Position numbers and translations under genes: made by a program. Below are positions 1-4,837 of a stretch of DNA of 4,837 bases, piece after piece. Positions within the stretch are counted from its first letter, which is position 1. The number at the start of each line of letters is the position of its first letter. The notes under the pieces are model-generated. The model saw only the letters and a program-made list of their open reading frames with translations. It searched no databases and had not been told where the DNA came from. Source of the DNA: a virus (Duplodnaviria > Heunggongvirae > Uroviricota > Caudoviricetes). The stretch covers positions 1 to 4,837 of IMG/VR virus record IMGVR_UViG_2660238126_000002; one strand, given 5' to 3'.

Positions 1-123
1 ATTTTTCCTCCATTGAATTTTATGTTTCGCATCTTAAAACAGACGAGGGAAAATAAAATGTACATGTCGCTGTTTCTGGACCCGCCTCGAGAAATTTTTA
101 TTATTTACTGTTGTGTAACAAGG

Positions 124-474
124 TTATAACGCCATCTGAGCCATTTTCTGATAATTCAATCTGTCTGCTGTATCACCGGGCAAGTGGTATTGTTTATTAC
201 GATAAAAAGCGGTGTCAGTAATCATTACGGCGGGAATATCGTGTTGCCAATAATTCAGGTGGTCAGAGAAATCAATACCGGGAATAAACCATGGGGCATT
301 CATAGAATAAACAGATAAATCCCGGGATGATAACAATGCCGTTTTTACCTGACGAACGGCGTTGATATCCTGTATTCTGCCGACCAGGCAATAAAGTCCC
401 CCCGATCGGGATAAAGCCAGGACATTGCGGGTAAGGGTAATCCTGGCTACCAGGCGCAGAGTCGTAATAGCCAA
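124..474 (-). pseudogene. M28-family zinc peptidase-like gene, C-terminal segment
   Basis: Translation contains NVLALSRSGG and then DFSDH...IPAVMITD...YHLPGDTADRLNY, matching the conserved C-terminal motifs of M28 aminopeptidases as I recall them. The expected catalytic core between the two motif groups is missing. Family assignment is by motif recall, not alignment. Confidence 0.4.
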
Positions 475-815
475 TCGGGGACGCCCTGCGCGGTAACTCT
501 GGCACCGCTACTGACAAAGAACTCTTTTATATACTCTACGGACCTATTCAGATTATCAATATTGTCGGCATTACGTGGATGCACAGTTTGTGTAAGATAA
601 CGAACTGTTTTTTCTAATTGCTCAGGACTGACGTGTCGGGGCGTTGGCGATAATGCAGTGACCCAGGGTTGGTAAAAATAATCAGAGGGAGTGAAATCAG
701 AAATAATATAACAAAAGGAGCGCGAAAATACCGTCAGCATGGTATTGCGGGCGGTCATCGTCTGCTGGTTGGTGATCCAGAAGGTTTTATAACCCGCCTG
801 TTTCATCATGTTCAT
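447..815 (-). pseudogene. Same M28-like gene, N-terminal segment in a different frame
   Basis: Translation ...RYLTQTVHPRNADNIDNLNRSVEYIKEFFVSSGARVTAQG resembles the N-terminal region of M28 peptidases. The frame is open upstream to 923 with no SD before the ATG at 815, and it overlaps the 124-474 ORF in another frame, implying a frameshift near 447-474. Confidence 0.4.
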
Positions 816-910
816 CAGCGACGGCTGCGTCAGATACAGATCCGGGTTCTTTTCATTGGCAAAGGTCAGCGNNTNTATCGCGCTGATTTGGCAATTGTGA
901 TGATAAAATA

Positions 911-944: not shown

Positions 945-1196
945 ATGACTGGCTGGGAACTGCGAATCTGGCGAAAAAGCATGCTCTGGTCACGCGAAAA
1001 AGCGGCCAGAGAATTTGGCGTGACGCAGAGAACATGGCACGCCTGGGAAAATGCGGAACAGGTGGACGTCACCGTCTGGAGGACCACCCAGGCACTTTCA
1101 GTCCGTGACCTGCTGCCTCACATGCAGGGGATGCGCAAGGCAGATATCATCAGGCGTCTGGAAAATGAACTGGGGGAAACGGCAGAGGATGTGTGA
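945..1196 (+). CDS. Small HTH DNA-binding protein (XRE/Cro-like), 83 aa
   Basis: ATG at 945 with SD-like aaagg 6-10 nt upstream; stop TGA at 1194-1196. The segment REKAAREFGVTQRTWHAWENA fits an HTH pattern of the XRE/Cro type. Confidence 0.6.
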   Translation: MTGWELRIWRKSMLWSREKAAREFGVTQRTWHAWENAEQVDVTVWRTTQALSVRDLLPHMQGMRKADIIRRLENELGETAEDV

Positions 1197-1207
1197 GCGT
1201 GATTCAC

Positions 1208-1228
1208 AGCCTGGCAGAATGCCAGGCT
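1208..1228. terminator. Hairpin between convergent genes (AGCCTGGCA-gaa-TGCCAGGCT)
   Basis: Perfect 9-bp stem with 3-nt loop between the HTH gene stop (1196) and the stop of the minus-strand small ORF (1227). No clear U-tract on either strand, so terminator function is inferred from position only. Confidence 0.35.
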
Positions 1229-1433
1229 ACTGCTCATCAGGAAACAGTTTTTTCAGTTCTTCACCGGAAAGTCCGGCTGCCTCCTGAATCCGTTCCGGCG
1301 TCCAGCCCATATCCCGCAGCCGGCAGGCTGCTTCCCGCGCCACTTCAAGCGCACCTTTCTTAAAACCTTCTTTAAAACCTTCGTCGAAACCTTCGTCGAA
1401 ACCTTTCTGTATAAGACGTTCTGCAATCGTCAT
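1227..1433 (-). CDS. Orphan Rpn-family C-terminal-domain-like small protein (DUF4351-type), 68 aa
   Basis: [60 protein letters not shown] matches the C-terminal tail of YhgA/Rpn-like (transposase_31) proteins: repeated (E/K)G units followed by a ...GLS.EEL segment. The N-terminal nuclease domain is absent; the frame is open only to 1511 upstream. Confidence 0.55.
1359..1406. repeat. Four tandem copies of a ~12-bp unit (aaaccttcgtcg-like) inside the small ORF
   Basis: Read directly: ttaaaaccttct / ttaaaaccttcg / tcgaaaccttcg / tcgaaacctttc, encoding the [17 protein letters not shown] repeat. Confidence 0.7.
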
Positions 1434-1456
1434 ACTGTTTTCTCTGCTCCTGCTGG

Positions 1457-1482
1457 CAAAAGGCCCGGTATTTTGCCGGGCT
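1457..1482 (-). terminator. Candidate intrinsic terminator on the minus strand
   Basis: Minus-strand read is AGCCCGG-caaaata-CCGGGCC followed by TTTTG: a GC-rich 6-bp stem plus a short U-tract. Confidence 0.4.
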
Positions 1483-1512
1483 GTGAGGTTCTCATCAGTG
1501 AATGATTTTCTT

Positions 1513-1698
1513 CAGTTCAACCTGCTCGACACCCCGGGGCACGAAGACTTCTCGGAAGATACCTATCGTACCCTGACGGCGGTGGACTGCTGCCTGATGG
1601 TTATCGACGCTGCAAAAGGTGTTGAAGATCGTACCCGTAAGCTGATGGAAGTTACCCGTCTGCGCGACACGCCGATCCTCACCTTTATGAACAAAGAC
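1513..1698 (+). pseudogene. prfC: Internal fragment of peptide chain release factor 3 gene (about 60 codons)
   Basis: Translation [59 protein letters not shown] matches the G-domain region of PrfC (about residues 78-137 by recall). Flanking residues on both sides do not match PrfC, and there is no native start or stop. Confidence 0.75.
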
Positions 1699-1882
1699 CA
1701 GCGATCGGTGAGATCGTGCCGCCCGGCGTCGATCAGGGTGATCGCGTCGTTAAACTTCACTACGCCGCTGCATGGCTGGCGGCGATACTGCGGCGAGCGC
1801 CGCGCTCTGGCGCAGGCCGCGCACTCGCAGCCCCATGCCGGAACGCCCTGTGCGCCGCCAGTGCCGGTGAGCGTGAGGGTNA

Positions 1883-2248
1883 GGCCANNTCTNCNTCTCG
1901 CATGTTCTGCATGATGATGCGACGGCGGCGGTAAGCCGGGTCCGCCAGATTCTGCGGATCTTCATCCGGCAGGCGACGCAGGGTCATCTGCGGATTCACC
2001 TCATGCTTGGGTTTGACATATCCCGGCGTAAATTCAGAGGTGGAGCCGCCACGGGAACGGATAACCTCACCGGAAACAATCGGCGAAACGTACAGCGCCA
2101 TGTTTACCAGTCCCGGAATTTGTGAGAGATAGACTTTCTCCGTGGTGAAGGGATAGCTCTCACGGAAAAAGAGACGCAGAAACAGCGGATCAAACTTAAA
2201 TTTCTGCTCATTTGCCGCCAGCAGCTGGGCGGTTGTGTACATCGACAT
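1883..2248 (-). pseudogene. E: Lambda-type major capsid protein gene, 5' fragment (first ~122 codons)
   Basis: MSMYTTAQLLAANEQKFKFDPLFLRLFFRESYPFTTEKVY...PAYRRRRIIMQNMR matches the N-terminus of lambda gpE. Similarity stops after about codon 122, at the N-containing stretch 1881-1895, and the frame continues into unrelated GC-rich sequence. Confidence 0.9.
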
Positions 2249-2268
2249 AAAAAAATCCCGTAAAAAAA

Positions 2269-2282
2269 GCCGCACAGGCGGC
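2269..2282 (-). other. Short hairpin in the D-E intergenic region, followed by a T-run on the coding strand
   Basis: Minus-strand read is GCCGC-ctgt-GCGGC then TTTTTTT (plus-strand A-run 2262-2268), ending about 14 nt before the E start codon. No SD is visible for E. Confidence 0.3.
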
Positions 2283-2303
2283 CTTTAGTGATGAAGGGTA
2301 AGG

Positions 2304-2636
2304 TTAAACGATGCTGATTGCCGTTCCGGCAAACGCGGTCCGTTTTTTCGTCTCGTCGCTGGCAGCCTCCGGCCAGAGCACATCCTCATAACGGAACGTG
2401 CCGGACTTGTAGAACGTCAGCGTGGTGCTGGTCTGGTCAGCATCAACCGCCAGAATGCCAACGGCAGTACCGTCGGTGGTGCCATCCCACGCAACCAGCT
2501 TACGGGTGGAGGTGTCCAGCATCAGCGGGGTCATTGCAGGCGCTTTCGCACTCAATCCGCCGGGCGCGGTTGCCGTATGTGCCGGGTCACTGTTGCCCAG
2601 CGGCTGGTAATGGGTAAAGGTTTCTTTGCTCGTCAT
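2304..2636 (-). CDS. D: Lambda-type head decoration protein, 110 aa, intact
   Basis: [56 protein letters not shown]...TAISIV is near-identical to lambda gpD as recalled. SD AAGGGA lies 5 nt upstream of the ATG at 2636. The 9-nt gap to the upstream stop and 55-nt gap to E match the lambda spacing I recall. Confidence 0.95.
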
Positions 2637-2645
2637 AAACATCCC

Positions 2646-3041
2646 TTACACTGGTGTGTTCAGCAAATCGTTAACGGCATCAGATGCCGGGTTACCTGCA
2701 GCCAGTGGTGCCGGTGCCCCCTGCATCAGACGATCCAGCGCAGTGTCACTGCGCGCCTGTGCACTCTGTGGTGCAGCTGCCAGAATGCGGCGGGCCGTTT
2801 CCACGGTCATACCGGGGGTTTCGGCCAGCACACGTGCCTGTTCTTCGCGTCCGTGAGCTTCCTCACAGTTGAGGATCCCCATAATGCGGCTGTTTTCTGC
2901 CGCAACCGCAGCGGTGATCTGCGCGTTCACGTCCGGCTGCGCCGCGCTGGCGTTTTCGCCCTCCGTCGCTTGCACCACGTCAGTAACGTCAGCCTGCGAA
3001 GCAGTGGCTGAAACAGTTGTTGATTGAGTCTCTTTGGTCAT
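2646..3041 (-). CDS. Nu3: Lambda-type scaffolding protein, nested in-frame in the C-like ORF, 131 aa
   Basis: Internal ATG at 3041 is preceded by a strong SD (AGGAGG, then gcgaa). Product MTKETQSTTVSATASQ...NDLLNTPV is Ala/Gln-rich and scaffold-like. It contains GGATCC at 2873-2878 and GGTTACC at 2690-2696, which I recall as lambda landmark sites. An alternative in-frame ATG exists at 3251. Confidence 0.8.
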   Translation of the reverse strand: MTKETQSTTVSATASQADVTDVVQATEGENASAAQPDVNAQITAAVAAENSRIMGILNCEEAHGREEQARVLAETPGMTVETARRILAAAPQSAQARSDTALDRLMQGAPAPLAAGNPASDAVNDLLNTPV

Positions 3042-3617
3042 TCGCCCTCCTGAGAGACGGGATTTACGTGCATCCAGTGCATCACGCATAACGGTGATCG
3101 CATCGGTGCTGTTGACAAGTTCATCAGCCAGTCCGGCATCAATGGCCTCCTGACCGCTGTACATTGCAGCCTCGGTATCCAGCACAGCCTGCACGGACAG
3201 GCCGGTATATGCCGACACCTTCTGCGCAAACATCCGGCNGGTTGCATCCATCCGGGNCTGCAGTGTCTCGCCGTCATAGGTAATCGGGTTACCGCACGCT
3301 TCCGGGTTCCAGCCCAGCAGAGCCTTAAAGAGCATCTGCCGGACATCGTCCACCACATCATACGAGGCAAACTGACCGCGCTCATCACGCCCGTTACTCA
3401 GTATGACAACCACGGAGAAGCCCTCTTTCAGCTCCTGCCAGTAGTCGGTCTGGCTTTTGTTTTCTCCCGGAGAGTCATCACCCGGTACCACATACGCCGC
3501 CGGGAGTCTCAGCTTTCCGACCTCCGGCAGATTTTTGAACTGTGCCGCGCCTGCTACCCGGTTTTCAAAATACGGGCAGCGGGCACGCAGCGCAGCAATA
3601 ACAGGCGTCAGTTTCAT
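2646..3617 (-). CDS. Chimeric ORF: non-lambda N-terminal ~110 aa joined in-frame to the C-terminal part of a lambda C-like (S49 prohead protease) gene plus Nu3
   Basis: Continuous 323-codon frame. Residues from about 110 onward (...ETLQ.RMDAT.RMFAQKVSAYTGLSVQAVLDTE...) match the lambda gpC C-terminus. Residues 1-110 (MKLTPVIAALRARCPYFENRVAGAAQ...) carry no S49 catalytic-core motif that I can recognise. The ATG at 3617 overlaps the upstream ORF stop (ATGA, 3614-3617). N bases sit at 3239 and 3257. Confidence 0.6.
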   Translation of the reverse strand: MKLTPVIAALRARCPYFENRVAGAAQFKNLPEVGKLRLPAAYVVPGDDSPGENKSQTDYWQELKEGFSVVVILSNGRDERGQFASYDVVDDVRQMLFKALLGWNPEACGNPITYDGETLQXRMDATXRMFAQKVSAYTGLSVQAVLDTEAAMYSGQEAIDAGLADELVNSTDAITVMRDALDARKSRLSGGRMTKETQSTTVSATASQADVTDVVQATEGENASAAQPDVNAQITAAVAAENSRIMGILNCEEAHGREEQARVLAETPGMTVETARRILAAAPQSAQARSDTALDRLMQGAPAPLAAGNPASDAVNDLLNTPV

Positions 3618-4018
3618 CTGTGTCGTCGCTCCGGCTTCAGTGATTTACGCAATTCCCGCGCCAGAAAATAGCGTGTCCAGCTGCGGTTCTTTTCAAGCGT
3701 TTCCACCATAAAGTTATTACGTGGAGCCAGCCGCCAGCCGCTGCCACCGGATGCACCACGATGATGACTACGACGACGTTTTGCTCCTCCCCGGACACCA
3801 AAAAACAGAAACGCCGGATAGAAGTCACCAGAGATCATCCGGTTCCCCTTCCCGTTGCGCTGGTTAGGGGCAATGCGTGTCATAAAACCGGCTCGCTTTT
3901 TACTGGCTCTCGGCACCATGTAACCAATCGAACGAGCCAGGCGTCCGGTCTGATAACCGGGGTTTTCACCCGGTGCCGACCGCGCACGGCGCATCACCAG
4001 CCGACGGGCATCACGCAT
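3614..4018 (-). CDS. Arg-rich basic ORF, 134 aa, unknown function; possibly the 3' remnant of a longer phage gene
   Basis: Only open frame on this strand here, with E. coli-like codons (cgt, ctg, ccg, ggt). Stop overlaps the downstream start (ATGA). No SD before the ATG at 4018, which sits exactly where the sequence becomes AT-rich. Frame is open upstream only to 4084 with no further ATG. Confidence 0.35.
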   Translation of the reverse strand: MRDARRLVMRRARSAPGENPGYQTGRLARSIGYMVPRASKKRAGFMTRIAPNQRNGKGNRMISGDFYPAFLFFGVRGGAKRRRSHHRGASGGSGWRLAPRNNFMVETLEKNRSWTRYFLARELRKSLKPERRHR

Positions 4019-4034
4019 ATGACGCTGACCAATC

Positions 4035-4370
4035 GTGACAAACGATAGATTTATAAAATCTTCATTACCGATCCCTGAACTATACTATCTACCACAGAGA
4101 AAATTTACTGGGATTTCTTTAAAATACAAAGGAAAAATCCCATATACACCAGCTAGTTCAAAAATGAAATGGGATATAGTACAGTCTCTTTTGCTGAAAC
4201 AAACATCCTTATTTATATCAAACAACACAATGCAAGGAAGTAGGAGGAAAAACGAGTTCATCATAAACTCAATAATATGGAAAAAAAATGAAACCTCAAA
4301 TTGCGAATATTCAATCGAAGGAGGTGTTTATGCTCTGTTTAGGTATACTGGTAAGCCTGCTGGCTATTAG
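4035..4370 (+). CDS. AT-rich ORF (111 codons from GTG), possibly the 3' remnant of an acquired gene
   Basis: Stop TAG at 4368-4370 is immediately followed by an intrinsic terminator. There is no SD at the GTG start or at internal ATGs. Lys/Asn/Ile-rich, with no recognisable domain. Confidence 0.2.
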   Translation: MTNDRFIKSSLPIPELYYLPQRKFTGISLKYKGKIPYTPASSKMKWDIVQSLLLKQTSLFISNNTMQGSRRKNEFIINSIIWKKNETSNCEYSIEGGVYALFRYTGKPAGY

Positions 4371-4497
4371 ACCCTGCTTCGGCGGGGTTTTTTTATGGGC
4401 ACGGTGCGGGGTGAGTTGTCGGATGCGCTTCGCTTATCCGACCTACAGGGGAGGATATTGTAGGCCCGGTAAACGTGGTGCCATCGGGCAAAATTAG
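4330..4497 (+). CDS. Candidate small ORF (55 aa) with a near-perfect ribosome-binding site
   Basis: AAGGAGGTG at 4318-4326, 3-nt spacer, ATG at 4330. Product begins MLCLGILVSLLAI (hydrophobic). The frame runs through the terminator hairpin and both REP units, which argues against a conventional gene. Confidence 0.2.
   Translation: MLCLGILVSLLAIRPCFGGVFLWARCGVSCRMRFAYPTYRGGYCRPGKRGAIGQN
4371..4394 (+). terminator. Rho-independent terminator, plus strand
   Basis: Stem ACCCTGC / GCGGGGT (7 bp, one G-U pair) with a TTCG loop, followed by a 7-T run (4388-4394). Confidence 0.6.
4416..4489. repeat. Two REP-like palindromic units in opposite orientation (BIME-like)
   Basis: Unit 1 around 4418-4442 is GTCGGATGCGCTTCGCTTATCCGAC, followed by CTAC. 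Unit 2 around 4460-4489 is GTAGGCCCGGTAAACGTGGTGCCATCGGGC. Both resemble the enterobacterial REP consensus (GCCGGATGCG...CTTATCCGGCCTAC) as recalled. Confidence 0.6.
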
Positions 4498-4533
4498 CTC
4501 GGAGTAACAGGTTTTGATTATTTAAGGAAGTGA

Positions 4534-4728
4534 TGGTGGTGGGGGAAGGATTACTCAACGCTGCGCGCTTCGCCCTTCGGGTCGTTGCCTGCGGCAACGC
4601 TCTCTCGCTGCAAAATGAGTCAGGGAAAACGACACAATCAGGCGCTTATCGCCCTGGCGAGACGACGCTGCGACGTTCTGTTCGCCATGATGCGCGACGG
4701 GACTTTTTATACCCCGCAGGCGTCATAA
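4534..4728 (+). mobile_element. Probable 3'-terminal remnant of an IS110-family transposase gene
   Basis: The frame ending at TAA 4726-4728 encodes ...[34 protein letters not shown]. The spacing GK-9-AR-10-RDG and the hydrophobic pattern match the conserved C-terminus of IS110/IS116/IS902 transposases as I recall it. There is no start codon or SD, and no upstream transposase body in the window. Confidence 0.4.
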
Positions 4729-4837
4729 CATGCTTGACAACTTAATAGGGGTCCCCCGCTTCAGCCCCGTAAAACGCATCTGACTCCCGCACAACACGCA
4801 CTTCAGCGGGTCAACCTTTAGTAACCTCTGATACATC

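Follow-up and report, generated by a model that had tools for sequence, protein, structure and literature searches.

A mosaic E. coli contig that carries an internal fragment of prfC is very probably an artefact of assembly

A short internal fragment of prfC, the E. coli gene for release factor 3 (RF3), lies in a 4,837-bp stretch of DNA (hereafter the window) among ten other pieces of genuine E. coli sequence to which it is unrelated. We consider it very probable that the window is a chimeric contig, created as an artefact of assembly, and that it does not record a biological rearrangement. The window is the entire contig CCBV01000687.1 of the draft assembly GCA_000936365.1, seen in a single sample; to judge from the contig's own number, the assembly has 687 contigs or more. 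Both of its termini are formed by IS and pseudogene fragments, and it has no link to any genomic context. Its composition is mosaic, its junctions are sharp, its ambiguous bases follow a pattern set by these junctions, it stands alone as a contig and its junctions were absent from the collections that we searched elsewhere.

The window was cut into segments, each of which was searched against the complete E. coli genomes and then locally aligned to the native loci that had been fetched. Eleven native E. coli pieces, with sizes from 85 to 1,395 bp and identities of 98.7–100% to their source loci, tile the whole window except for positions 872–875. The first of these (1–719, minus strand) derives from the chromosomal yfbM-elaD region with its frameshifted hypothetical-protein pseudogene and is identical at 719/719 positions to E. 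coli M8 (NZ_CP019953.1); it abuts, with zero bases in common, an internal piece of eptC (cptA) that corresponds to about nt 884–1035 of this 1734-nt gene (720–871, minus strand; 152/152 identical to strain 120899). After the letters 'nntn' at 872–875 comes a segment of an IncI-type plasmid (876–1518, plus strand), which matches the O104:H4 plasmid NZ_CP027395.1 at 643/643 positions and contains an HTH regulator (945–1196, plus strand), a 68-aa hypothetical protein (1227–1433, minus strand) and, of a gene of the Rpn family, only the final 24 nt (1495–1518, minus strand). The prfC fragment (1519–1695, plus strand) is the fourth piece, and antisense to it is the fifth, nt 5–194 of the phnP coding sequence (1696–1885, minus strand; 189/190 identical to strain 120899), the sole mismatch of which is an N at 1881.

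Sequences of two different prophages make up the middle of the window. Lambdoid head genes occupy 1883–3277 on the minus strand (1395 nt, 99.4% identical to strain S51 when N's are counted as mismatches) and comprise the 5' 366 nt of a major capsid gene, a head decoration gene (2304–2636) and the 3' part of an S49 peptidase gene (2646–3277). The second prophage, one with a tail sheath, supplied 3260–4044, also on the minus strand (99.5% over 785 nt to strain 135), where the 5' part of a tail terminator gene (3260–3617) and part of a hypothetical gene (3614–4044) are found. The remainder consists of four small pieces: an internal part, about nt 353–676 of 861, of a plasmid helix-turn-helix domain gene (4045–4368, plus strand; 99.4% identical to p600468_158, NZ_CP025850.1); the intergenic region between narI and tyrT on the chromosome, with part of the RtT sRNA (4368–4610, minus strand; 243/243 identical to strain 120899); the 3' end of the transposase gene of ISEc20 (IS110-like) together with the end of the element (4610–4762, plus strand; 98.7% over 153 nt); and an 85-nt fragment, annotated on plasmids as IS91-family transposase, which reaches the end of the contig (4753–4837, minus strand; 97.6–98.8% identical to several E. 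coli plasmids). Human diarrhoeal isolates are among the closest strains and plasmids.

A first-pass annotation of this DNA had placed an internal fragment of prfC, limited to the G-domain region and devoid of start and stop, at positions 1513–1698. The similarity to prfC is perfect: in a local blastn alignment, 177/177 nucleotides of window 1519–1695 are identical to prfC of strain M8. The limits first proposed were too wide, the true extent being these 177 nt; for example, the bases 'gttc' at 1515–1518 form part of the plasmid piece to the left. The rest of that description was accurate. The fragment corresponds to nt 253–429 of E. coli prfC, that is, codons 85–143, within the G-domain, and its in-frame translation is RF3 residues 85–143 of 529. 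The Pfam profile GTP_EFTU recognizes this translation with an E value of 4.8e-18, at profile positions 72–130 of 188 only. A megablast search with window 1480–1720 gave matches to the annotated prfC gene in 5,424 of the 5,426 complete genomes of E. coli (E 1e-86; median, one place per genome). Genuine prfC sequence is present, far beyond what chance could produce.

E. coli RF3 is a translational GTPase, and the fragment is identical to its gene and protein over the stretch that it covers, but it differs from the complete gene in having no promoter, no start, no stop and no P-loop (G1). Instead of a 529-codon frame with the GTPase motifs G1 to G5 it offers only codons 85–143 (59/529); the DTPGH motif is present and the NKLD motif is severed after N-K. 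A functional GTPase cannot be encoded by such a piece.

The first-pass annotation had also described the fragment as lying next to phage remnants, and here the neighboring sequences contradict it. On the left is the IncI-type plasmid segment (876–1518) that ends in the truncated Rpn-family gene, on the right the antisense phnP fragment (1696–1885), and lambdoid head-gene sequence begins only at 1883.

The question of a phage connection deserves attention nonetheless, since prfC is a genuine integration site of Stx phages, at the 5' end of the gene. The prfC stretch of the window was found in 27 records of Stx1a/Stx2c-converting phages in the phage collection, which identifies prfC as an integration target and could be taken to suggest that the fragment is the remnant of a prophage attachment-site duplication. 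The coordinates refute this proposal. One such record, LC727876, has a 14-bp sequence (ATTATTTCTCACCC, record positions 50001–50014) annotated as 'duplication due to insertion', and the prfC sequence beyond it is simply a 400-bp host flank. This attachment core aligns to nt 52–65 of the prfC coding sequence, whereas the fragment comprises nt 253–429; it starts 187 nt downstream of the core and does not contain it. Moreover, no prophage DNA directly abuts the fragment, which is flanked by plasmid and phnP DNA and not by an Stx phage. The phage pieces of the window, although they might recall an integration at this same host gene, are lambdoid head genes and tail genes of a tail-sheath phage, neither of which is joined to prfC. 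We thus reject an attachment-site duplication, to which we give practically no chance. The first-pass annotation had dismissed it as well, correctly, on the argument that a duplication would carry the 3' end of the gene; that reasoning was mistaken, the duplication lying at the 5' end (nt 52–65). As a separate observation on the integrated phages, positions 2275–2716 of the sequence fetched from LC727876.1 correspond to prfC nt 24–465. In this prophage record, similarity to prfC already starts 28 nt upstream of the core, and it thus seems that prfC receives a substitute 5' end from the Stx1a/Stx2c-converting phage.

The loci from which the eleven pieces come are widely separated. Besides scattered chromosomal loci, the sources comprise plasmids of at least two types, two distinct prophages and a pair of IS elements, and the segments that are contiguous in the window are non-adjacent in reference genomes, where their loci are megabases apart or on different replicons. 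In strain E2863, for instance, prfC lies at 5.33 Mb, phnP at 4.99 Mb and RtT at 1.49 Mb; in strain 120899 the first piece lies at 3.93 Mb, eptC at 2.01, phnP at 1.85 and RtT at 0.04 Mb. The chromosomal pieces nevertheless show zero divergence from these native loci (100% identity apart from N's), and hence no sign of age as pseudogenes.

These facts bear directly on the possibility, raised together with mis-assembly in the first-pass annotation, that the fragment is a scar of illegitimate recombination. Under such a scenario the window would be a genuine in vivo mosaic, a scrapyard locus built up by repeated illegitimate recombination or IS-mediated events, and its prfC sequence would be a second, partial copy of the gene. 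Rpn-family, ISEc20 and IS91 sequences do occur among the pieces, mobile elements are able to promote rearrangements, and prfC is a known site of Stx-phage integration. Yet within 4.8 kb the chromosome, plasmids, two prophages and IS elements would have to be connected by about ten independent joins, and none of the pieces would have diverged from its parent locus; the prfC fragment itself is still 100% identical to native prfC. Just three of the eleven pieces come from recombination or IS genes, and these three are not involved in six of the ten junctions, among them that between prfC and phnP; the prfC attachment core, at nt 52–65, is outside the fragment. Microhomology at the joins is slight or nil, N's occur at the junctions only, the contig is linked to nothing else in the surrounding genome and its junctions are absent from all of the collections searched. 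We consequently regard the in vivo mosaic as highly improbable, and of the two explanations offered initially it is mis-assembly that the evidence sustains: eleven unrelated pieces tile the window, the joins are blunt, N's fall where the parental sequences disagree and the junctions are unmatched elsewhere.

The anatomy of the junctions was revealed by overlaying the native continuation of each piece on the window at all ten of them. Shared sequence at the joins amounts to 0–3 nt in 9/10 junctions, the other being the join of lambdoid and tail terminator sequences, where there is an 18-nt zone of partial similarity. Ten positions of the window are N (872, 873, 875, 1881, 1888, 1889, 1893, 1895, 3239 and 3257). 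All ten are within 20 nt of three junctions, in a zone that amounts to 9.4% of the window, so that the ambiguity is concentrated at joins. Nine of the N's fall in aligned junction views, and at every one of these the two native sequences disagree, while the columns of agreement inside the superimposed zones were called normally. For example, the 'nntn' at 872–875 overlies 'cctg' in one native sequence and 'tatt' in the other: its N's are mismatches between native eptC and the plasmid, and its 't' is a match. This pattern is the one that a consensus over two different, superimposed sets of reads would show, and the location of the N's at native mismatches implies that the data also contained reads that ran on into the native sequences. 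At the seven remaining junctions the pieces abut exactly and bluntly without any N. A ligation at restriction sites (e.g., Sau3AI, HpaI) was considered and rejected, since the native and window sequences, read at all of the junctions, have no site in common.

The bluntness of most joins raises a different possibility, namely that the window corresponds to a real in vitro molecule, formed when sheared DNA of the strain was ligated during library construction and subsequently sequenced and assembled; it would then be a physical artefact. Joins without microhomology at most junctions do resemble blunt-end ligation, and fragment sizes of 85–1,395 bp resemble those of sheared DNA. But for a lone 4.8-kb chimera with eleven inserts to be assembled, it would have to be covered by sufficient reads, and the N's at native disagreements imply that reads of the native continuations were piled on the junction, which a clean ligation product would not produce. 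A physically chimeric library molecule would otherwise look similar to a software join, and we think this origin very unlikely, if somewhat less so than an origin in the cell.

None of the junctions could be recovered from independent genomes in the collections searched. No place in the 5,426 complete E. coli genomes covered 80% of the window or 80% of its segment 1480–1720. In PLSDB there was no match across the prfC junctions, the plasmids matching window 1300–1518 (the Rpn region) only, and in the phage collection the prfC junctions were likewise missing and the prfC part was matched on its own. Exact 30–31-mers spanning 1518/1519 and 1695/1696 were absent from 185,579 GTDB species genomes, and the exact 31-mer across 1695/1696, the prfC/phnP join, was absent from the JGI metagenome contigs. 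The search of the E. coli genomes had returned 202 places on plasmids, which made a plasmid-borne prfC fragment a candidate; it was rejected, as no PLSDB match reaches the prfC part.

Several features of the source loci are peculiarities of the native sequences in their own right. On IncI-type plasmids a full-length nuclease gene of the Rpn family is closely followed, on its downstream side, by the 68-aa ORF (window 1227–1433, minus strand), which stands alone. DNA in the region of this ORF (window 1233–1357) is 74% identical to the 3' end of the Rpn-family gene, and the two stretches, ORF and Rpn 3' end, are located at 1828–2034 and 2092–2217 of the fetched native plasmid locus. On account of this resemblance in sequence the ORF seems to be a separate copy of the C-terminal tail of Rpn. 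Its position beside the Rpn gene is a native structure of the plasmid and not part of the artefact. The frameshifted pseudogene region between yfbM and elaD (window 1–719; 1101–1733 of the fetched locus) is shared at 100% identity by the contig and several E. coli isolates from humans and animals. On p600468_158 (649–2324 of the fetched locus) the HTH-domain gene of the eighth piece adjoins a recombinase pseudogene and also a disrupted primase-domain gene of a 'TOTE conflict system'.

How might such a contig have arisen? We propose that eleven short genuine stretches of E. coli DNA were strung together during the assembly, scaffolding or gap-closing of a fragmented draft genome. The prfC piece would have been a short contig or a cluster of reads that was joined to unrelated neighbors, and it would most likely have originated from the strain's ordinary prfC, or else from another E. 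coli present in the sample at low abundance. From the pattern of the joins we infer with strong confidence that software, rather than events in a cell, created them. As a unit the prfC piece has no function.

The window has much in common with the mis-joined contigs of fragmented short-read drafts: there too, short, unrelated and otherwise perfect segments are concatenated with ambiguous bases at the joins, and the product is a small orphan contig among many hundreds, with junctions unique to one record. It departs from them in one respect. Errors in de Bruijn graphs share k-1 bases, typically through repeats, and scaffolders leave N's. Most of the joins in the window, in contrast to typical de Bruijn mis-joins through shared repeats, have no shared sequence, and neither a de Bruijn error nor a scaffolder usually leaves joins that are blunt and free of N's, a point that counts against the explanation that we prefer. 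Candidates for the step responsible are the merging of scaffolds, gap closing and the concatenation of contigs.

The consequences of mis-assembly extend to the gene calls on record for CCBV01000687.1, among which three are false fusions. The first, of 138 aa (1498–1914, plus strand), is composed of plasmid sequence, RF3 residues 85–143 and antisense phnP; another, of 323 aa (2646–3617, minus strand), is an in-frame fusion of the tail terminator and the S49 peptidase; and a third, of 122 aa (447–815, minus strand), fuses eptC to the yfbM-elaD pseudogene region. An exact look-up with the chimeric 323-aa protein led to a single record, that of CCBV01000687.1 with its length of 4,837; in a collection of 15 billion proteins the exact sequence was absent as a cluster member. 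Entries of this type can contaminate protein databases and surveys of domain architecture, and they can mislead work on gene fragments or pseudogenes. Scrutiny of this kind is probably needed for the other small contigs of GCA_000936365.1 as well.

Should the contig nevertheless correspond to a real molecule of the cell, E. coli would have to possess a hitherto unrecognised capacity for end joining or fragment capture, one able to link about eleven captured pieces of chromosome, plasmids and prophages in series in the absence of homology; we rate the existence of such a molecule as extremely doubtful. The prfC fragment has no biological significance, and its practical value is as a warning that CCBV01000687.1 is chimeric.
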